Origin: a virus
Lineage: Duplodnaviria > Heunggongvirae > Uroviricota > Caudoviricetes
Reading direction: 5' to 3' (one strand)
Virus record (IMG/VR): IMGVR_UViG_3300020059_000001
Span: 78,679 to 108,404 of that record
Length of the DNA: 29,726 nucleotides
A model generated the notes under the pieces. The model worked only from the letters and a program-made list of their open reading frames with translations, ran no database searches and was not told the origin of the DNA. Below, in pieces: positions 3,476 to 19,400 of this stretch; the first letter of the stretch is position 1, and each line of letters starts with the position of its first letter. The position numbers and the translations under genes were made by a program.

Positions 3476-4029
3476 CAGATTTGGTACGCGTAGGTGAATC
3501 CGGCTGGCCGCAGATCGAGTTCCGTAAAGATCAACGGTATGAAGCCGGCGGTAACCAACATCTGTTCAACGGCCTCGGAGTCGAATCCCCAAACGTGTTC
3601 TGGGTTGTTGTCGTCGTCTTCACCGTCCGGTGTGGACAGGATCAGATTAGCCGTCTTGCTCCGGATCGCTTTCAACACCGCGTCGGGGTCATCGACGTGT
3701 TCAATGGTTTCGCTACAGATGAAAAGGTTGATCGGGTCGGTCAGTTGGTGGATGGTTTCTTCGATCGGCCCGGTGTACTCGTAGCCTGGTGCGATGTCGC
3801 CGAGGATCGTCTTCACGCCGCAACTCGCGGCGAGGCGGCGGGCGATCGTCGCGTCCCCGCAGGACAGGTCGGCAACGGTGCTTCCTGGTTGGATCATGTG
3901 TTGGGCTAGGGCGGTGGTGACGTCGACCCGGACCCGGTGGTCGGCCCAGGCGCTGTGCTGGTGCGGTTTGGCGTAGAGCGCGGCTAGCTCTGTCTGGCTG
4001 GGTGTCGGCCGTAGCCGGCGGCGCATCAT
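3463..4029 (-). CDS. Class I SAM-dependent methyltransferase
   Basis: VADLSCGDA and CSETIEHVDDP motifs. Start re-called at 4029 (ATGA overlap with the upstream stop). Confidence 0.8.
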   Translation of the reverse strand: MMRRRLRPTPSQTELAALYAKPHQHSAWADHRVRVDVTTALAQHMIQPGSTVADLSCGDATIARRLAASCGVKTILGDIAPGYEYTGPIEETIHQLTDPINLFICSETIEHVDDPDAVLKAIRSKTANLILSTPDGEDDDNNPEHVWGFDSEAVEQMLVTAGFIPLIFTELDLRPAGFTYAYQIWCAR

Positions 4030-4730
4030 CGGTCTACTCGTTTGCGCAGCGCCTGTACCGCCCGTACATCCGTCCACATTCGTGTGTGCAGATAGGTTTG
4101 GTAGGCGCGGGCGTCGGCGCTGTACACATCGGCGTTGTTGACCCGACGGTAGCCTGGGTCCCAATCCGCTTTACCGGCAACTGGATGCACATGTTCGACG
4201 ATGACGTCGGGCAGGTAGGTAAGGCAGCCGGCGTGCTTACCGAGGTCCCGCCAAAAGTTGTCGACAAACAAGTGAGTCAGCCGCGGCGGTGACATGTAGC
4301 CCAACGCCCGAACGATATCGGTGGTCATCGCGACCTGCGTCGGTAGGTTCTCGCCCTGCAACAGGTCGTTACCGTAGACGATGCCGGTACCGAGCCCGTG
4401 CAGCTCGTCGAGGTACTGCCTGTCCCAGCCCTCAGTGCGGGGCCGGTGGTCATCGCCGAGGAACCCGATCGCGAACCCGCCCTGCTCGACAACGTAGGCA
4501 GCGGCCAGGTTCAACGCCGACACCATCGTGCCCCGTTCCTGCTCGATGATCGACGTAACCCTGTTGATGCCGACCATCGACTCGTAGTAGACGGACCGAC
4601 GCTCATCGTCAGCGTCCAGCGCCAACACGATCTGGGTATCGGCAGCACAGGTCGCGTTGAATGCTTCGGCCAGTTCAGCGACCGCAGCAGGCCGGCCACG
4701 GGACGGCACGATCACCACAAGATCAGTCAT
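4026..4730 (-). CDS. GT-A fold (family 2-like) glycosyltransferase
   Basis: Start re-called at MTDLVVIVPSRGRP; DxD-like LGDDH; HLFVDN; VEHVHP. Confidence 0.85.
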   Translation of the reverse strand: MTDLVVIVPSRGRPAAVAELAEAFNATCAADTQIVLALDADDERRSVYYESMVGINRVTSIIEQERGTMVSALNLAAAYVVEQGGFAIGFLGDDHRPRTEGWDRQYLDELHGLGTGIVYGNDLLQGENLPTQVAMTTDIVRALGYMSPPRLTHLFVDNFWRDLGKHAGCLTYLPDVIVEHVHPVAGKADWDPGYRRVNNADVYSADARAYQTYLHTRMWTDVRAVQALRKRVDR

Positions 4731-10461: not shown

Positions 10462-13092
10462 TTACTTCTTCAGCGGTGGCCTCGGCTTAGGCGTTGCCTT
10501 ATTTGATGTGCTGCCACCAGCCGGATACGGCTTAGCCGTAGGACTGTCGTTAGCCGCACCAGGCGTCGGATTGTCCGACGACGGTGCCGGTGCATGCCCG
10601 GTCCCAGGTGCATTACCTCCGGGCAATGCGGGTTTGCCGCCACCGCCACCAACGGGTAGCACCGGCTGGCCACCGATTTCGTAAAGCTGAACGCTGACAA
10701 GCCCGGAGTGCTCCAACAAGCTGACGTCTTGGCCGATGACCGCGGCAACCGACGACTTCGGTGTGAATCCGTCTTTGACGTAGCCGGTGATGGTACTCAT
10801 TTTGATTTGTTCGATTTCGGCTGCGTCACGGGCGTCTTCACGCAGGATCGGCATGTCGGCGACGTCGAACCACAGTTCCGCATCGCGTGGCACGTTGATG
10901 ACGGGGGCTAGCGCCGCGCATAGGTCTTGCAGTGTCGGATAGACCCAGGAATCAGCGAAGATACGGCGGGCCATGCCGAAGTTACCGGCATTCAGTGAGC
11001 TACCGGCGAGACCTTCAGAAATACCCAACAATGGGGCCGGAACTCGTGACAAGAAGGCAATTCTGGTTTCCCCAGCTCCCTGGGTATTTTTGAAGTCGAG
11101 CTGCTTCAGGTCGCTACCGACGACTTTCGCGTCGGCGCCAGCAGTAAGATACAGGCTGCGATACGCATTCTTTACGCCAGCGTGTCGGTTCTCCATGGCA
11201 TCAACCATGGCGTCGAACTGTTCCCGCGATGCGGCGGTCAGTCCGTTGACGACCATGTTCGGGGTATTGTGGGTCAGAATAAAATCGTCGGTGACGTACA
11301 GGTGGTTGTCGGAGTCGACACCGATGCACTGTGCCGGCTTCCGGCCGACGTGTTCGACGCCCTGGATGTAGCGCCACCGGCCACCATGGAAGGTGGGTGA
11401 ATACATCGCTGCCTTGCGGGCTAGCCGGCAGGGGGTAATCCATTCCGGTAGTCGACTGATCAGTACCCGCCACTGGGCACGTGCCCGGTCTGTAGCTAGC
11501 CGGCTTGGCCGGGCCGACGCGATACCACCGAGGCCACCGACTAGTTCGGCAACCTGCTCGGCCAACATTTGACTGGTGCTGTCAAACCGGACCGTATTCG
11601 GCTGCCGCCGATCTACGGATCCGTCAGTGTCGATCAACCCCTGGAGCAGGGCAACTCGCTGTGTCACCGATGCACGTAGATACGGCTCCGGAATCGACTT
11701 TTCGTAGCCCAACTTGTCGAACAGGCCCAGTTCGCGGATCTGTTGGGTCAGCGGATTTGGGCGCGAGGCGCCAGGGCCCCGGAAGTAGAACTCGGCCCAC
11801 CCGCCACGGTTACGGCGGACGATCGTTACTCCGGCCGGCAGGAGCGTGGCGAGAACCTGCTGCTGTTCGTCAGCGTCACCAGTATGCGCGGCCATTGAAA
11901 CCCCGCCGCTACCCTTGCCGTTGTTGCGGAAACTACCGTCGCCGAGCAGCGATCCGAGCAGGTAGGGATCCAGTGGCAAATCGCCGGGGTCATCGAACTC
12001 GACCGGATCGACCAGCGGCACCGACCACTTGTAAGGGCCGCTGTCGTACTGGACGCCGTTGGCCACGAGCTGGGCCAGGGTACGGGTCCGGGTAACGCCG
12101 AGTTTGCGGTCATAGGCACTAGCGACGGTCCACAGGTGGTCGGCGGTGCACTCAGTTGATGTACCGCTGGAGAATGTCACCCGGTAGATGTCCTGGACAC
12201 CCTGCGGGTACACCGCGACGACCATCTTGGGCTTACCGTCGGAACCGATAACCCGATCACCAACGACAACCTCACCCATCGTCGTCCAACCGGCCGGCGT
12301 CAGAATCCCCGCGTCCAAGGGCATCGGTGCGCCGTTTTCGAAGAAGCGAAGCTTGTGTTCGGTGGCGGCTTTGTCGCCTTGGATTTCGCGGAGTGCTGGG
12401 GTGAGCCAGGACATGCCGATGCCGGCGGCTTCCGGGTCTGGTAGTGGGCTCCAGTGGGCCATTTCGCCGGGCAGGATGGTGTGCATCGGGTGTTGTGATG
12501 TGCGGAGGCCACCGTTTTGGTAGACGTAGCCGAGTAGTTCACCGTCGAGGGCGTGGGCGGCGTCGTCGGGTTCCTGGTGGGATCCGTAGACGAGGGCAAC
12601 CCAGTCGGGGCGTAGTACGCGTAGCCGGTCTGGTTGGCGGTAGACGTAGGCGTTGCCGGCGATGCCGGCGTGCCATTCCATTCGGGCGATCAGTTCACCG
12701 GTGGTGGCGTTTGTCCACGGCTTCTCTAGTGGGGCTAGCCGGGGGGTGCCGAACATGTGGCGGGGTTTCGACGATGACGGCAAGTTTCGGAATGTGAATC
12801 GGGCTTGGCTCAAAACTAGTGCGCGGACTAGTTGGGCGGCGAAGGCTGGTGGGCAGCTCCGTAGCGCGGCTGAGTAGCCGGGGAGGGTGCCGGCTATTTC
12901 GGATGATTTTGTGCCGTCGAGGGTTTGGATTAGCCCGTACGTACCAGGTCCGGTCACATATTGCGATCCGTTGTAGCCGAACGTTGTGGGGAGTAGGTAG
13001 TTGGAAATCCAATCGTCGGCGGAGAATCGCTCCTCTGTCTCAGTGCCCCTACGGCGAGCTAACTCCTTAGTGACGGCATCCAGTAGCCCCAA
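10462..13092 (-). CDS. Portal protein (HK97-like), intein-interrupted
   Basis: GNAYVY, G(M)SWL, FFENGA|TPNMVV extein junction, IAFLSRVPAPLLG; low-complexity C-terminal tail. Confidence 0.92.
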   Translation of the reverse strand: MGLLDAVTKELARRRGTETEERFSADDWISNYLLPTTFGYNGSQYVTGPGTYGLIQTLDGTKSSEIAGTLPGYSAALRSCPPAFAAQLVRALVLSQARFTFRNLPSSSKPRHMFGTPRLAPLEKPWTNATTGELIARMEWHAGIAGNAYVYRQPDRLRVLRPDWVALVYGSHQEPDDAAHALDGELLGYVYQNGGLRTSQHPMHTILPGEMAHWSPLPDPEAAGIGMSWLTPALREIQGDKAATEHKLRFFENGAPMPLDAGILTPAGWTTMGEVVVGDRVIGSDGKPKMVVAVYPQGVQDIYRVTFSSGTSTECTADHLWTVASAYDRKLGVTRTRTLAQLVANGVQYDSGPYKWSVPLVDPVEFDDPGDLPLDPYLLGSLLGDGSFRNNGKGSGGVSMAAHTGDADEQQQVLATLLPAGVTIVRRNRGGWAEFYFRGPGASRPNPLTQQIRELGLFDKLGYEKSIPEPYLRASVTQRVALLQGLIDTDGSVDRRQPNTVRFDSTSQMLAEQVAELVGGLGGIASARPSRLATDRARAQWRVLISRLPEWITPCRLARKAAMYSPTFHGGRWRYIQGVEHVGRKPAQCIGVDSDNHLYVTDDFILTHNTPNMVVNGLTAASREQFDAMVDAMENRHAGVKNAYRSLYLTAGADAKVVGSDLKQLDFKNTQGAGETRIAFLSRVPAPLLGISEGLAGSSLNAGNFGMARRIFADSWVYPTLQDLCAALAPVINVPRDAELWFDVADMPILREDARDAAEIEQIKMSTITGYVKDGFTPKSSVAAVIGQDVSLLEHSGLVSVQLYEIGGQPVLPVGGGGGKPALPGGNAPGTGHAPAPSSDNPTPGAANDSPTAKPYPAGGSTSNKATPKPRPPLKK
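11266..12327 (-). mobile_element. Class-3 intein with LAGLIDADG endonuclease in the portal (354 aa)
   Basis: Starts PMPLDAGILTP and ends ILTHN/T; WCT motif (DHLW, AQCI, THN); motifs LGSLLGDGS and LQGLIDTDG. Confidence 0.9.
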
Positions 13093-13105: not shown

Positions 13106-13301
13106 CCCGAGCTATCGTTTGTGGCAATCCGCCGGAAGGCGGAGGGCAGTGGCGGGGCGTGACAAGGCTCGGCGCGGCACGCGAAGGCGCGGCAGCAGCG
13201 GCGTGGCTGGGCTTGCGAGGGCGAGGCACGGCAAGGCCAGGCAGCAGTGGCGGGGCAAGGTTAGGCCTGGCACGGCAAGGCCAGGCGAGGCAAGGCCGGC
13301 T
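13106..13301 (+). repeat. GGY-NN pentamer array 2 (3 units) with leader; putative guide ncRNA
   Basis: TATCGT at 13113-13118; hairpin ccgcc-GGAA-ggcgg at 13129-13142; linkers at 13191 and 13240; ends GGCCGGCT. Confidence 0.9.
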
Positions 13302-13635: not shown

Positions 13636-13877
13636 GGAACCTGCCCTTTCTCGTATGGGGACACAGTGGACATAACAGGGCGTCGGGCTGAGAATTACGC
13701 TGTGAGCGTAATGAGATATGTGCGATCCACTGGCATATGTGGATCCGGCATGTTTATGTTCTTCTTTAGAGCGGCAGGCCCCAAGGTTCCTTAGTCAGCT
13801 TCAGAAAGCATCCTGGAGTGCCCATGCCAGCTGTTGCCCTGAGGATCTGGGCCTCACCGTTCTCGTTCCTCAGTAGA

Positions 13878-14194
13878 GGTTCGGCAGCAGCGGCTAGGCG
13901 AGGCTAGACGGGGCGTGGCTAGGCGGGGCGAGGCAAGGCAGGGCAGCAAAGGCGAGGCACGGCAGGGCAGGGCAGGGTATGGCAGGGCACGGCTCGGCAG
14001 CAGCGGCGGGGCAAGGCAGGGCGTGGTCTGGCGTGGCGCGGCAGCACCGGCGAGGCAAGGCAAGGCGAGGCCGGGCGCGGCGTGGCAGCAGAGGCGCGGC
14101 ACGGCAGGGCGAGGCTTGCGACGGCACGGCATGGCAGCAGAGGCAGGGCGAGGTAAGCCGAGGCGAGGCATGTCCAGGCAAGGCACGGCCGGCT
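13878..14194 (+). repeat. GGY-NN pentamer array 3 (6 units), directly upstream of the RAMP gene; putative guide ncRNA
   Basis: Linkers at 13883, 13942, 13996, 14040, 14084 and 14133, followed by 10, 9, 7, 7, 8 and 9 pentamers; ends GGCCGGCT. Confidence 0.93.
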
Positions 14195-14273: not shown

Positions 14274-14888
14274 ATGGCTGAAAAGTTAGTTACTTTGGAA
14301 CGGCTTCAGCGCGTTGAGCTGGAGTTTGTGATTGTTGGTACGTCCCCGTTGATCGTCAATCGCTGGTCTGAGAAGGCGAAGGCGATGATGTTGGAAAAGC
14401 AGACGACGTCGGCGCGGGCAAAGAAAGACCCCAAGGACCCGGTCGCTAACTTCGAGGCGTCGAAGTACAAGTTCGACGACGGGCGGGACGGCTTCCCGGC
14501 TGTTTCGTTCAAGGCCTCGATCGTGCATGCCGCCCGGTTGTTCGAGGGCATTACGCAGGTACAGATCAAGCAGACCGTGGTGGTGCGCGGTGAGGGTGAA
14601 CACCAGTTGGTGCCGCTCGAATATGGTGCGGTAACGATGCGCGAGGACACGCCGCGGAACGCGTCCGGGGTGGCGGATCTGCGGTACCGGGCCCAGTATT
14701 GGCCGTGGTCTGCGACGTTGTATGTGCGGACCATCGCTGGGCAGCTCGACGAGGGGTCGCTGTTGGCTCTGGTCGACGCGGCGGGTATCGGCGGGGTTGG
14801 TGAGTGGCGTCCGACGTCGCCGAAGTCGGCGACCGGGACGTACGGCACGTTCCAGATCGATGATGCGTCTGCGGTGGAGCTGCGGTGA
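14274..14888 (+). CDS. Solo RAMP/Cas7-like protein (Vipr-like RNA-binding effector candidate)
   Basis: First strand FVIVGTSPLIV, FPAVSFKAS (cf. the RAMP PGSSLKG motif) and C-terminal Gly-rich loop GIGGVGEWRP...GTYGTF. GAGAGG RBS. Flanked by pentamer arrays. Confidence 0.8.
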   Translation: MAEKLVTLERLQRVELEFVIVGTSPLIVNRWSEKAKAMMLEKQTTSARAKKDPKDPVANFEASKYKFDDGRDGFPAVSFKASIVHAARLFEGITQVQIKQTVVVRGEGEHQLVPLEYGAVTMREDTPRNASGVADLRYRAQYWPWSATLYVRTIAGQLDEGSLLALVDAAGIGGVGEWRPTSPKSATGTYGTFQIDDASAVELR

Positions 14889-15580
14889 CGGTTGAGAAGG
14901 TCAACATCGCGGAGCTGGTCGAGGATATGGATTTCTACCCGCGACACAGTGTCGACGGCGCCCATGTGTTGGATCTGATGCGGGCTATCGCCGCCAATGA
15001 GACGCTTCCACCGCCGGTGGCTGACCGGAAGTCGATGCGGATCGTGGATGGGTGGCATCGGATCCGGGCCTACGCCAAGTTGCATGGCCCGTCGGTACTC
15101 ATCGACGTTGATCTGCGGAGCTACCGCAGCGACACGGAGATACTCAAAGACGCGATCCGGCTGAACGCGAGTCACGGCCGGAAACTCGACCAGCAGGACC
15201 GGACCCGTAGCGTGTTGCTGTTGCAGCGACGCAACGTTGACGTAAAGACGATTGCGGTGGTCTTACACACCACGCAGCAGCGGGTCGAGCAGCTGAAGTT
15301 GCGGTTCGCGTTGGTGAAGAACAACGGCAGCAGCGAGCAGCTACCGGTCAAACCGAACCTGTATCCGAAGCCGGGGGAGGAACCGCGGACATTGACGCCG
15401 GAGCAGTACGCGGTAGCGCAGGCGTCGTCTGGTCATCGGACTACACAGATCCTGACGCAGTTGGCCAACGAGTTGGAGGCCGAGTTGTGGAATGTCGACG
15501 ACGAGCTGATCCGTGAACGGGCCTGGCGGTTGGCTGACCTGATCGCGCAGCGGATCCCGCAGCCCGAGCCGGCGGCGTAG
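14885..15580 (+). CDS. ParB/Srx N-terminal-domain protein
   Basis: LPPPVAD...IVDGWHRIRAY signature, then AIRLNASHG and an HTH-like segment; GTGA overlap with the RAMP gene. Confidence 0.85.
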   Translation: MTVEKVNIAELVEDMDFYPRHSVDGAHVLDLMRAIAANETLPPPVADRKSMRIVDGWHRIRAYAKLHGPSVLIDVDLRSYRSDTEILKDAIRLNASHGRKLDQQDRTRSVLLLQRRNVDVKTIAVVLHTTQQRVEQLKLRFALVKNNGSSEQLPVKPNLYPKPGEEPRTLTPEQYAVAQASSGHRTTQILTQLANELEAELWNVDDELIRERAWRLADLIAQRIPQPEPAA

Positions 15581-15601: not shown

Positions 15602-15870
15602 GGTTCGGCAGCAGCGGTTGGGCACGGCAAGGCGAGGCTGGGCGCGGCACGGCGTGGCTCGGCAGCAGGGGCGAGGCGTGGCATGGCGCGGTAAGGCGTG
15701 GGATGGCAGCAGTGGCTGGGTCTGGCATGGCCTGGGTAGGCAAGGCAAGGCAAGGCAGCAGCGGCACGGCATGGCGGGGCAAGGCAGGGCGTGGCTCGGC
15801 GAGGTACGGCAGCAGCGGAGGGCATGGCTGGGCGAGGCATGGGCCGGCCCGGCGCGGCAAGGCGCGGCCA
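15602..15870 (+). repeat. GGY-NN pentamer array 4 (5 units), downstream of the ParB-like gene; putative guide ncRNA
   Basis: Linkers at 15607, 15661, 15705, 15754 and 15808, followed by 9, 7, 8, 9 and ~11 pentamers. Confidence 0.93.
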
Positions 15871-15875
15871 ACCGG

Positions 15876-15911
15876 GGCGGTGATGAACGGATGGTTCCGT
15901 TCATCACCGCC
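15876..15911. terminator. Perfect hairpin at the convergence of array 4 and terL; probable bidirectional terminator
   Basis: 16-bp arms ggcggtgatgaacgga / tccgttcatcaccgcc with a 4-nt loop; overlaps the terL stop codon. Confidence 0.75.
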
Positions 15912-18900
15912 AACTGCCGAAGAACTGCTGCGGCGGCGCCTCTGGCAGCCCCTTTTCGGTGGCGGTACCACGAGCCTCGTGGGCCAGAACAGCAGCTACC
16001 GCGGCGTCGATACGTAGCCCGTCACCGCGTTTCGCTAACTTCAGGTAGTGGGTGGCGATGCTGTTTTCGTCACCCGGTCGTGGCTTCTTCCGGGATCCCT
16101 TGACCAACACCGCGTTTTTGCAGTGTCGGGTAAGTATTTCGGAGTTGGCGTGGCTGATGTCGCCGGCAGCGAACGAGGTGTTGAACCGTTCGATCGCCTT
16201 GTCGAACCGTTGTTCGACGTTGGTTGGGAATTCGATGATCTGTTTCGGCCAGAGCGCCGACCACACATCCAAATAGTCTTGCCACCGGTACGGGTCGGCG
16301 AACATGAGGGTTACTTGGTAGGCGCCGAATACTTCCCGGACGGTTTGGTCGACTTCAACCGAGGGAACTTTCCAGTCTTCGTCGGCGTCTTTGGGTCGTT
16401 CCCAGGTTTTGAGGTTGAACAGTCGGCCGTCGGACATGCGGGAGGCGATCAGTGAGGTCGCGTCGCGGAGTTTGGAACCGTCGAAGCCGATCGCGATCGG
16501 CGTCTTCGGGGCCAGCAGGTCGTCGTAGGCGGCCAGGTCCCAGCGGATCGGGTCGACGAACACGGACTCGCCGACGACGATTTCGTTGAGGAAGAACCGG
16601 CGCCGGTCGGCTTCCAAATGTCGACTGGACCGGACTTCGTGCATGATGCGGCCTTTGATGTTGACCCAGCCGCCCTGTTCACGAGCCGAGTCACCGTATT
16701 GGCGTAGCAGCTCGGCGTACAGTTCGTCGTCGTCGGTGAGGTCGTCGACTCGATGTGAGTCGACGGTGTCGAGGAGGACCCGTTTCGTACCGGTGTTCTT
16801 CGACAGTGCCGGGTCGGCGCCGTCGCGTGGCACACGGACGGAGTCGTCGGAATCGGCGGTGACCTGGGCTTCGGAACCCTCGGTGGGATCCCAGGCGTTT
16901 GTTAGTTCAAGCCACCGGCCGTCCATGCCGGCGACGTTCCGTTTGACCGCGCCGCAGACCCGCCGGTATCCACCCTGGAGGGTAAAGAGGTGGGAATTGT
17001 GGGTAGGAATCCAACCTTCACCGGCAAGGAAGAGGCTGTCGACTGCATCGACGGTAATACAGCGAACGGGTACCGAGTCCACCGGCTCGATCGAGTCAAC
17101 TGTCAACCAGTCATGTCGATCAGCCGCGACAGGTACCCGGAATTCGCGGCCGTCGGCGACCATCTCTCCCGTTGTACGAACTTTCGGCAGTGCCGCGGAA
17201 CCGTTGACGCGGGTTTCCCAAAGGTGTCCGTCGCTGGCAACGATGCTCGTTCCGTCGGCGAAGGTAAGCCGGTAACAAGTACGGTCGTTCTGAACCTCGG
17301 TAGCACCGATTACACAGACTATGGAGCCGTCGCGACCAAAGATTCGGTCGCCGACCGAGATGTCGCCCATCGTGGTCCAGCCCGTCGGCGTCGGCACCGG
17401 CGTATCAAGGGCAAGGGCTTCCGTGATGGTGACAAAACTCAATGGAGCGCCGAGCCGGGCCTTGGCGCTGGTGGTAACAGGTTCGATGGTGCCGCCGGCC
17501 GGCAGGTTGATACGGGTTTGGCCACAGTCCATTCCATCGACGTTGATGAGTGGTCCGAGGCGGATCATGTCGAGGAGCGGGCGCCAGGTGTTGGAGGTGT
17601 TGTGCGTTGGGACAGCGCGACGGCCAGCTAGGAACAAGTGGTCGGTGGTGTTGATGCCGACGCACTTGACCGGTACTGATTCGACGGACTCGACCGAAAC
17701 GATCTGCCGGTAGTCGCCCAATCGACGCTGCGGGCGGGTGGACTGCCTGCTGGCCTTGTGGGTCAGCTGGAACACGGGTTCTTCGCGGGGAACGAAGAAG
17801 ATCCGCCAGGCGGCGGCCGTGCGGTCGAACCGCATGTTCCAGCGGTACCCGAGTGAGGTCAGCAGCTCGCCGAGGCCGTCGATGATGGCCCGGTTGATGT
17901 TCGTAAAGCCGGCACGGCCGTTGACTTCGATGTGGCCGTCGGAATCCATCAGCCCCTGCAACAGGGCCAGGCGTTGCTTGTGACCGGCTCGCAGGTAGGC
18001 GGCAGGGATGTGCTTGCTTCCCAGCACGTCCAGGTCGCGTAGCCGCTCCCGGAGTGTGCGCAGCCGCTCCGGCGCCGGCCGGTCTGGGCCGCCGGTGCGG
18101 TCCTTGGTACGCCGGCACGGGCCGCACGCCTGGCCGACCATGTCGATTCCGTATTCGTGACCCCAGGGGCATAGGCCCTGCCGGCGGCGGATGCGGAGAA
18201 GCCCCGTATTGCCAACACCTTGGCCCCAGGCGATGTCTTCGAACGGCAGGGTAAGGGGAGCAATGATGGCTTCCACCTCGGCCTTGAGGCGGAGGTCGAA
18301 GGTGATGGACGCATCGCTGGCCGAGCCGTCACCCAGCCAAAGTCCGAGAATGTATGGGTCAACTGGCAGGTCGTCCCCGTCGGGAAGATCCCATACGACA
18401 CCCGCGGGTACCCGGTACCGTGCTCGGAATCCCTTGTCCGATGGAACGCGGTATGTGGCGGCTAGCTGTTCGGTCGTCAGCGTGACCGTACGGGTCCGTG
18501 TCCGGTTCCGGTCGTCGCGGTGGGTAACGTCTTCGACGGTCCAGCTGTGTGCTGCGGACGCCGTTATCCGCTCGCCGTCAGAAAACGTCACGGCATAGCA
18601 GCGTTCACCGAGTAACACCGGGGTTTCATGGACGACGTATGCGGTGCTGCCGTCCGCGGCGAAGATGCGGTCTCCGCGGCGGAGGTCACCCATTGTCGTC
18701 CAGCCGTCAGGTGTGGGCACCGGTGTATCGAGTGCCAACGGCTGTTCTTCTGAGGTGCCGAGGCAGACGATCAGCGGTGTTGGGTAGGGGGCGCCGACTG
18801 GTTCGCCGGTTTCGTCCCAGCCGTCGAAGCGGGTCGGGCCGAGCGCTTCGGCGAGGATGATCGCGGCTGCTAGTGGGTCTTTGCCGTGTTTCTGGGCCCG

Positions 18901-19128
18901 CCGGAATTGGCCGCCGGTGTAGATGAGCGCGTCGGGGGCTGGCCACGGCGCGGCGTACGGGTACAACCGATAGTAATGAAGAAGAAACAAGTATTGTTCG
19001 TCGGTCAGTTTGTACTGCTGGCCGCGGCGGTAACCGTCGGGGATGACGACGTGATTCTCGATCCATTCGGCTACCCGGTAGCCGAGGGTTGGGATTTCGC
19101 CTTCATATTGGGGGCCACGCCAGGGCAT
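15904..19128 (-). CDS. terL: Terminase large subunit with two inteins
   Basis: Walker A variant RRAQKHGKDP; SEEQ|TSN and VTITE|SHL junctions; nuclease motifs IGFDGSK..D, ADPYRW and IDAAVA. Confidence 0.93.
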   Translation of the reverse strand: MPWRGPQYEGEIPTLGYRVAEWIENHVVIPDGYRRGQQYKLTDEQYLFLLHYYRLYPYAAPWPAPDALIYTGGQFRRAQKHGKDPLAAAIILAEALGPTRFDGWDETGEPVGAPYPTPLIVCLGTSEEQPLALDTPVPTPDGWTTMGDLRRGDRIFAADGSTAYVVHETPVLLGERCYAVTFSDGERITASAAHSWTVEDVTHRDDRNRTRTRTVTLTTEQLAATYRVPSDKGFRARYRVPAGVVWDLPDGDDLPVDPYILGLWLGDGSASDASITFDLRLKAEVEAIIAPLTLPFEDIAWGQGVGNTGLLRIRRRQGLCPWGHEYGIDMVGQACGPCRRTKDRTGGPDRPAPERLRTLRERLRDLDVLGSKHIPAAYLRAGHKQRLALLQGLMDSDGHIEVNGRAGFTNINRAIIDGLGELLTSLGYRWNMRFDRTAAAWRIFFVPREEPVFQLTHKASRQSTRPQRRLGDYRQIVSVESVESVPVKCVGINTTDHLFLAGRRAVPTHNTSNTWRPLLDMIRLGPLINVDGMDCGQTRINLPAGGTIEPVTTSAKARLGAPLSFVTITEALALDTPVPTPTGWTTMGDISVGDRIFGRDGSIVCVIGATEVQNDRTCYRLTFADGTSIVASDGHLWETRVNGSAALPKVRTTGEMVADGREFRVPVAADRHDWLTVDSIEPVDSVPVRCITVDAVDSLFLAGEGWIPTHNSHLFTLQGGYRRVCGAVKRNVAGMDGRWLELTNAWDPTEGSEAQVTADSDDSVRVPRDGADPALSKNTGTKRVLLDTVDSHRVDDLTDDDELYAELLRQYGDSAREQGGWVNIKGRIMHEVRSSRHLEADRRRFFLNEIVVGESVFVDPIRWDLAAYDDLLAPKTPIAIGFDGSKLRDATSLIASRMSDGRLFNLKTWERPKDADEDWKVPSVEVDQTVREVFGAYQVTLMFADPYRWQDYLDVWSALWPKQIIEFPTNVEQRFDKAIERFNTSFAAGDISHANSEILTRHCKNAVLVKGSRKKPRPGDENSIATHYLKLAKRGDGLRIDAAVAAVLAHEARGTATEKGLPEAPPQQFFGSWR
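16996..17418 (-). mobile_element. Class-3 mini-intein in TerL (141 aa)
   Basis: Starts ALALDTPVPTP and ends IPTHN/S; GHLW, VRCI and THN (WCT); no endonuclease. Confidence 0.9.
17599..18741 (-). mobile_element. Class-3 intein with LAGLIDADG endonuclease in TerL (381 aa)
   Basis: Starts PLALDTPVPTP and ends VPTHN/T; AHSW, VKCV and THN; LGLWLGDGS and LQGLMDSDG. Confidence 0.9.
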
Positions 19129-19150: not shown

Positions 19151-19400
19151 GTCTATCCGATAGAAGGGGGTCTTTGGCCTCTGGGCAGCGGCATGGCACG
19201 GCACGGGTCGCGAAGGCACGGCAGGGCAGCAGCGGAGAGGCGCGGGCTGGCAAAGCGAGCGATGGCGAGGCGAGGCGAGGCGAGGGACGGCGGCATCGGC
19301 GTGGCTAGGTTAGGCATGGCTGGGCACGGTAGGCATGGCAGCAGCGGCGAGGCTGGGGTTGGGGTTGGGGTTGGCTGGGCCAGGCAGGGCGCGGCCGGCT
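19151..19400 (+). repeat. GGY-NN pentamer array 5 (4 units, more degenerate); putative guide ncRNA
   Basis: Hairpin at 19167-19181, then GGCAGC; linkers at 19225, 19289 (ggcggcatc) and 19337; ends GGCCGGCT followed by a T-run. Confidence 0.87.

Follow-up and report, generated by a model that had tools for sequence, protein, structure and literature searches.

What does a ParB-like protein do in a phage that encodes no ParA, when its gene directly follows that of a putative RAMP protein and lies between two repeat arrays? The window analyzed here comprises the terminal 29,726 nucleotides of a viral contig of 108 kb that is 94% complete. A tyrosine integrase is encoded in this genome, and the phage is therefore taken to be temperate. 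Because the closest annotated relatives of its RAMP protein occur in Mycobacterium and Gordonia phages, its host appears to be actinobacterial.

A VIPR locus with a ParB-like gene

The gene upstream of the ParB-like gene (14274..14888, + strand) is predicted to encode a single-RRM RAMP protein of 204 amino acids, which matches PHROG 4652. A profile built from the family of this protein matched the Vipr chain of SUSP1 (PDB 36pp) with an E-value of 1.6e-21, which identifies the RAMP protein as Vipr, and an HMM of close homologs also matched Vipr (E 2e-8). According to the accessible text of bioRxiv 10.64898/2026.04.26.720920, a VIPR system consists of vipr, one vap gene, and vrRNA arrays, and DNA is silenced by a gapped code; expressed vrRNAs that Vipr binds and target recognition by a 1-nt skip rule are further marks of the class. 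Upstream of vipr in the window, a vrRNA array (13883..14191, + strand) contains six GGY/NN tracts with a GGCAGCAGN-type linker between tracts; downstream of the ParB-like gene, a second array (15607..15870, + strand) contains five GGY/NN tracts. A 16-bp perfect hairpin (15876..15911, + strand), which is a candidate terminator or RNA tail, closes the locus. Based on these sequence features (the Vipr homolog, the GGY/NN vrRNA tracts, and a gene in the vap slot adjoining vipr), the locus is a VIPR system.

The VIPR cassette is oriented opposite to, and lies between, a portal-like gene with an intein/homing endonuclease insert (10462-13092, - strand) and a terminase-like gene with two intein-like inserts (15904-19128, - strand). 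The hairpin abuts the end of the convergent terminase-like gene, and the portal neighbor is also present in the loci of close relatives. At least six further solo GGY/NN arrays occur at scattered sites in the phage genome, at a distance from vipr. Three are at 1828-1985, 13146-13298, and 19185-19397 of the window, and the first two of these have a common leader; others are at 11709, 17899-18100, and 73350-73480 of the genome (C1).

The ParB-like gene (14885..15580, + strand) occupies the vap slot and encodes a protein of 231 amino acids that belongs to the TasParB family, as described below. Its GTG start codon (14885-14887) overlaps the TGA stop codon of vipr (14886-14888), and the resulting GTGA overlap (14885..14888, + strand) suggests translational coupling. 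GGAG is located 5 nt ahead of the GTG, homologs use the same start position, and the two closest relatives have an identical 4-nt overlap between vipr and the ParB-like gene. An earlier, sequence-only reading of this DNA had described the GTGA overlap, the position of the gene between two arrays, and the lack of an adjacent parA, and our analysis agrees with it on all three; indeed, ParA (PF13614) had no match anywhere in the 108-kb, 94%-complete genome. The parS consensus was likewise absent from that genome, and the guides had no self-targets in the phage's own genome above shuffles.

RNA-guided partners of the ParB-like family

The ParB-like protein matches PHROG 1033, annotated as "ParB-like" (E 4e-12). 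The window protein itself matched no Pfam family, and Pfam ParB_N was matched by just 17 of 147 family members. With E below 1e-30, the family comprises 863 clusters at 50% identity; it is large and essentially unannotated, and no homolog was detectable in GenBank cultured phages.

We drew homolog loci from viral, metagenome, and genome collections. In the window-seeded set of 41 dereplicated loci, each with at least 1.2 kb on both sides, an RNA-guided effector gene was found within 1 kb of the ParB-like gene in 40 loci, and an effector or array was found in all 41. The partners were vipr (31 loci), a TIGR Tas gene (TasA; six loci), a Cas12f-like gene (two loci), a divergent RAMP gene (one locus), and a GGY array alone (one locus). 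When loci from a TIGR-seeded search were added, giving a pool that over-represents TIGR, an effector gene was present in 61 of 64 loci and an effector or array in 63; VIPR-linked members are the majority in the samples taken. Seen from the ParB side, the rare linkage that the sequence-only reading had named as evidence against its proposal was not what we found. The same reading had cast the protein as a candidate partner of the RAMP protein. An RNA-guided effector does accompany nearly every homolog, but the ParB-like gene is optional for Vipr (present in 5 of 59 loci; see below) and is not specific to RAMP proteins, as it also accompanies TIGR-TasA and dCas12f-like effectors.

Coupling between vipr and the ParB-like gene is common but not required. 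Among 94 VIPR-linked loci, the two genes overlap by 4 nt in 19, abut in another way in 22, and are separated by a gap in 43 (filled by guide tracts in 32 cases), whereas vipr lies downstream in the remaining 10. In locus L052, the ParB gene (3663-4373) precedes a divergent Cas7-like RAMP gene that was missed by the Vipr profile, and a short ACC/ATC-NN pentamer tract is found upstream of the ParB gene. Locus L170 (IMGVR 3300031518_000060) has Tas-like genes on both sides of a vipr-ParB pair, within 1.3 kb, and is a possible setting for an accessory swap between VIPR and TIGR. The ParB gene is directly followed by a TIGR array in L157 (1605-2590) and by a GGY array in L134 (3986-4900), with no effector gene within 3-4 kb; these may be solo cassettes of ParB and guides that use an effector supplied in trans.

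For the view from the Vipr side, we took the clade to which the Vipr of the window belongs (59 viral loci after dereplication). A ParB-like gene was present in 5 of these loci, an unrelated 140-aa gene in 48, neither in 6, and both in none. Viprs that are 79-80% identical to that of the window have the 140-aa gene, whereas those at 82-84% have the ParB-like gene. Because the two genes alternate even among close Viprs, we interpret the ParB-like gene as an exchangeable occupant of the vap slot. SUSP1 Vap1 is not homologous to the ParB-like protein, and HHalign detected no homology of the C-terminal half of the ParB-like protein to either the 140-aa vap product or SUSP1 Vap1. The family of roughly 140 aa, which has an LHxxFEWDD motif and supplies most accessories in this Vipr clade (48/59), showed no homology to SUSP1 Vap1 by HMM or HHalign analysis; its members are in loci L002-L007, L215-L220, and L221-L300 (e.g., L227:3621-4043). 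Over 76 pairs, Vipr distances correlated with ParB distances (rho 0.36, Mantel p 5e-4), a correlation that fits long co-travel and that shared phage ancestry alone could also give.

In the TIGR loci that lack vipr, a Nop/IS110-like gene of roughly 260 aa scored above the NCBIfam TIGR-Tas cut-off (NF052498), and the arrays have 35-36-nt dual repeats. The ParB proteins operonic with TasA scored 168-247 bits over the whole family profile (positions about 2-222) and are 24-30% identical to the window protein. By their gene content and motifs, these loci are the TasA-TasParB arrangement of PMC12045711, in which we identified TasParB from motif and context and not against the sequences of those authors. 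TasParB of TIGR-TasA (Faure et al., Science 2025, PMC12045711, fig. S14) has a DGFHR motif and full-length homology to the window protein. However, TasParB loci pair the protein with TasA and a TIGR array, whereas the window locus has Vipr and pentamer guides, with no tasA or TIGR array in the operon; as judged from these comparisons, the window protein is a homolog of TasParB and not a TIGR component. The same publication draws no link from TasParB to other RNA-guided systems.

In two loci, the ParB gene directly follows a Cas12f-like gene and has a CRISPR array with repeats of roughly 36 nt on its downstream side. We identified six more distant Cas12f-like homologs (41-53% identity), and in three of the six a full-length ParB family member (213-255 bits) overlaps the stop codon. 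Altogether, a ParB gene is coupled downstream in five of the eight Cas12f-like loci examined (L022:1764-4255, L023:1776-4009, L301, L302, and L304). Three canonical parS-like sites are located 700 bp upstream of the dCas12f-ParB operon in L023 (1066-1129). The Cas12f-like family, encoded beside CRISPR arrays, has about 99 clusters; its proteins are 400 aa long and carry a Zn finger at the N terminus. For this family, we take the RuvC-I and RuvC-III positions to be those given by known TnpB motifs. In 72 aligned members, the position of the RuvC-I Asp is mostly occupied by Arg or Thr, and the protein ends before RuvC-III, so the Cas12f-like partner is probably nuclease-dead.

No recognizable nuclease was found in the Vipr, TasA, or Cas12f-like partners. 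Vipr represses, according to the accessible text of bioRxiv 10.64898/2026.04.26.720920, and TasA has been described as non-cleaving (PMC12045711). Judged by profile matches, one full-length ParB family spans three RNA-guided platforms that appear to be non-cleaving: VIPR, TIGR-TasA, and dead Cas12f. We give almost no credence to the explanation that the window gene is an orphan phage ParB that came to lie next to vipr by chance. Orphan ParB genes are common in phages, and most Vipr relatives are without a ParB gene (5/59 have one); however, every one of the 41 homolog loci has an effector or array, and the position, strand, and overlap of the ParB gene recur across three effector classes. This co-occurrence largely refutes chance adjacency.

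In the ParB tree, most TIGR-linked ParBs form one clade (100/100). One TIGR lineage and two Cas12 groups are placed elsewhere, among VIPR-linked ParBs, and most bootstrap trees divide the TIGR members into two groups and do the same with the Cas12 members. The topology suggests repeated swaps of ParB between platforms, in a tree that is unrooted, has a weak backbone, and does not reject VIPR-only monophyly (AU p 0.34); for these reasons, we make no call on the direction of transfer.

Predicted fold and nucleotide pocket of the ParB-like protein

AlphaFold2 modeled the ParB-like protein with a mean pLDDT of 94, and the best Foldseek match of the model was ParB-CDP (6sdk, E 7e-7). VIA-align identified residues 1-100 (14885..15184, + strand) as a ParB-N domain, with matches to PadC (Z 11.2, rmsd 2.3, 92 residues aligned) and KorB (Z 10.7); sulfiredoxin (Srx) also matched these residues (Z 10.4). 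This predicted ParB-N/Srx nucleotide-binding domain contains D14, YPR20, DG(W/F)HR59, and N94-x-x-HG. Residues 100-141 (15182..15307, + strand) were identified by VIA-align as a helix-turn-helix (HTH) domain, with LsrR as the match (Z 7.6, rmsd 0.8, 42 residues aligned). The fold comparison thus corroborates the ParB/Srx-domain assignment and the HTH-like segment proposed from sequence, and the IVDGWHR motif reported with them is at residues 53-59. The C-terminal domain (residues 138-231; 15296..15577, + strand) is predicted to consist of a beta-hairpin and three helices. Alone, this domain reached a top Z of 4.3 against solved structures and had no Foldseek match with E below 1, and all leads from Atlas features were under 0.9. 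From the TasParB model in PMC12045711, we infer that it may be a dimerization region. A complex prediction for Vipr and the ParB-like protein gave a score of 0.00 and is uninformative either way.

The ParB fold raises the possibility of a role related to partition, in which the system would either give the phage's DNA a centromere programmed by RNA or interfere with the ParABS of a rival. We consider this very improbable. It would fit the parS-like sites near 5 of 107 family loci, with three copies in one Cas12f locus; however, the phage's own genome lacks ParA, no ParA Walker-A motif occurs in the 107 loci, the phage encodes an integrase, and its guides have no match in the phage genome. In addition, the ParB-N domain begins at the start of the protein, with no LG(R/K)GL ParA-binding arm. 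Canonical ParB/Spo0J proteins (ParABS) have the fold and the phosphate-binding R/R/N triad in common with the window protein, but the latter has no ParA, parS, or ParA-binding arm, and canonical GERR, QPR, and ENLQR are replaced by GWHR, YPR, and LNASH, respectively.

We mapped pocket residues by HMM alignment to M. xanthus ParB (MxParB), with residue roles from PMC13229309. Conservation was read from an HMM-selected alignment of 147 members (A4), because DGxHR invariance in the locus-derived sets is partly circular, the search patterns having contained DGxHR. The phosphate contacts R54, R95, and N127 of MxParB correspond to R20, R59, and N94, which are invariant or >90% conserved among the 147 members. 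Both hydrolysis residues of MxParB are replaced, Q52 by Y18 and E93 by W57; across the family, Tyr is found at the Q52 position and Phe or Trp at the E93 position. The cytosine contact S68 of MxParB corresponds to A34. In 86 VIPR-linked members, the DG(F/W)HR motif has F in 63 and W in 22, and the window protein has DGWHR. Residues D14, D55, and H58 are invariant in the family and H97 is near-invariant; none of the four is a canonical ParB residue.

Based on this mapping, the ParB-like protein probably binds an NTP. CTP specificity or CTPase activity does not follow from the residues, and the term "CTPase" is unproven because the substitutions affect one cytosine contact as well as the two canonical hydrolysis positions. 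The CTP binding and CTPase activity that the sequence-only reading had put forward for examination, on the strength of ParB-N domains in general, are therefore not established by these residues: the phosphate contacts are kept, but the hydrolysis residues and the cytosine contact are not. Nucleotide specificity is unpredictable from sequence, and several orphan proteins bind ATP or GTP (PMC12704722). Mutations of the NTP site in a phage ParB that activates 5mYOX had no effect (PMC13229309).

The same pocket bears on a second explanation, that of a DndB/SerK/Srx-like enzyme that would use an NTP at the guide-bound site and modify, or sense modification of, DNA or protein. The DG(F/W)HR motif matches DGQHR of DndB, as the TIGR supplement said of TasParB, and those authors read the motif as an alternative enzymatic function (PMC12045711 supplement). 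Consistent with an enzyme, D14, D55, H58, and H97 are not canonical ParB residues, other residues stand in for the canonical hydrolysis pair, and the top structural matches for residues 1-95 include Srx, SerK, and SbnI. The DndB/SerK/SbnI/sulfiredoxin branch shares a DGxHR-type motif with the window protein, with structural matches of Z 7.7-10.4 for Srx, SerK, and SbnI; however, the window protein keeps HTH and C-terminal domains, which are missing from SerK, SbnI, and Srx, and no member of the branch is linked to RNA guides. Moreover, the loci inspected have no substrate-supply or transferase gene as a constant neighbor, and the gene is readily exchanged for a 140-aa vap that is small and apparently non-enzymatic. 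On balance, we regard an enzymatic effector as unlikely, although it is the most probable of the rival explanations.

The HTH domain at residues 100-141 is also what an autoregulator would need, namely an NTP-sensing, DndB-like repressor of the guide/effector operon that would tie silencing to the lysis/lysogeny state, and DndB itself is an ATP-dependent repressor of its own operon (PMC12704722). Upstream of the locus, a palindrome (13694-13712) overlaps a sigma70-like promoter match, and upstream palindromes are somewhat more common in ParB-type loci (13/59 vs. 4/51). However, the two closest relatives do not keep this palindrome, and the comparison yielded no shared operator, so the palindrome was dropped as a candidate operator. 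Autoregulation, which the sequence-only reading had offered as one of two roles, therefore found no support in its guide-directed form, as the guides lack self-targets above shuffles, and in its protein-based form is left with a palindrome that is not conserved. It also offers no reason for the restriction of the family to RNA-guided binders that do not cleave, and we judge it improbable. Within 13694-13760, a TGGCATATGTGGAT segment adjoining the palindrome is kept in the closest relative (L212), whereas the palindrome is not.

Proposed action at guide-bound DNA

The genomic data show that the ParB-like gene accompanies the gene for Vipr, for TasA, or for a nuclease-dead Cas12f-like protein, and that it takes the place of other vap genes. 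Our preferred reading, which we hold with slightly less than even confidence, is that the protein is an interchangeable Vap-slot accessory of phage RNA-guided DNA-binding systems and may act as a long-lived, NTP-gated clamp that, once loaded or stalled where a guide is bound to DNA, widens silencing. This takes up one of the two roles suggested in the sequence-only reading, in which the protein may be placed at sites chosen by the guide and thereby extend silencing. In a ParB-type dimer, the N-domains would close on binding of an NTP, which is not certain to be CTP, and the role of parS would fall to DNA that is guide-bound and distorted, or to a brief contact with the RNP. The clamp would either load at guide-bound DNA and slide, or slide and stall there; the stalling alternative is modeled on KorB stalled by KorA. 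Because the canonical hydrolysis residues are absent, such a clamp should be long-lived. On a rival element, the guide footprint of roughly 25-30 bp would thereby grow into a wider, steadier obstacle for RNA polymerase or recombinases. We advance a bolder version only as a speculation that we find rather doubtful: phages may have plugged a portable NTP-gated clamp, for which the RNA-guided complex replaces parS, into three evolutionarily unrelated non-cleaving guide systems, turning point binding into spreading, heterochromatin-like silencing of rivals.

The layout of ParB-N, HTH, and C-terminal domains matches the clamp class, whereas SerK and Srx are without the HTH and C-terminal domains (PMC12704722). 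Long-range silencing by KorB and KorA is a precedent (PMC11790492), and MxParB with Q52A or E93A mutations closes without parS and spreads farther (bioRxiv 10.1101/2021.05.05.442810). Based on the accessible VIPR preprint texts, SUSP1 Vap1 strengthens the protection given by VIPR and is required against the satellite. Because one family is common to three unrelated platforms, its function is probably platform-independent and would act on bound DNA and not on one protein surface; the unrelated folds of the partners favor recognition of a DNA state or a weak contact, and the model of the TIGR authors has only weak contact between TasA and TasParB (PMC12045711). Several points weigh against a clamp. 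A shared protein interface is hard to picture for three partners without a common fold, and DG(F/W)HR with the invariant D14, D55, and H58 resembles DndB/SerK/Srx more than canonical ParB. The enzymatic reading of the motif by the TIGR authors, the ineffective NTP-site mutations in the 5mYOX-activating ParB, the unpredictable nucleotide specificity, and the possibility that shared ancestry explains the Vipr-ParB correlation count on the same side.

KorB (RK2), VirB, BisD, and Noc also combine ParB-N, HTH, and C-terminal domains and need no ParA for a regulatory role. Each of them is loaded at a DNA site of its own, and their CTP pocket is canonical or near-canonical, whereas the window protein has no cognate site that we could find, has replaced hydrolysis residues, and is proposed to be targeted by an RNA guide. 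The VIPR systems of three preprints (bioRxiv 10.64898/2026.04.26.720920,.720927, and 2026.10.15.759431) have, in their accessible texts and like the window locus, vipr, one accessory gene in the vap position, and GGY/NN arrays in a temperate phage. In the first of these, as far as its accessible text goes, six vap genes encode DNA-binding proteins, nucleases, or helicases. The Vaps named in the preprint texts are WH-like, HTH-like, HNH, helicase, and nuclease proteins; ParB is unmentioned in those texts, and the ParB-like protein may still correspond to one of the vap2-6 products presented in the VIPR paper (Fig. 5A/S21 or data S4).

The VIPR class is already published, as is the ParB-like family in one context, that of TasParB; a ParB-type vap is not described in the accessible VIPR preprint texts. 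Within the literature covered, which was incomplete, we found no published link of ParB with VIPR or with inactivated Cas12/TnpB beyond the TIGR paper. What appears to be new is a single ParB family common to three RNA-guided platforms and alternating with another accessory in VIPR. Both discovery papers, in their accessible texts, pose the role of the accessory proteins in VIPR and TIGR-TasA as a question. The ParB-like family may be a plug-in booster for RNA-guided silencing and, if the protein is a clamp, would offer ParB loading that is programmed by RNA and, at 231 aa, a compact means to widen CRISPRi-type repression. Sharing across platforms makes swap experiments possible. Cultured mycobacteriophages with vipr and the 140-aa gene, such as Saal, whose gp52 (L145:3103-3558) is a member of the 140-aa family, are ready test systems.
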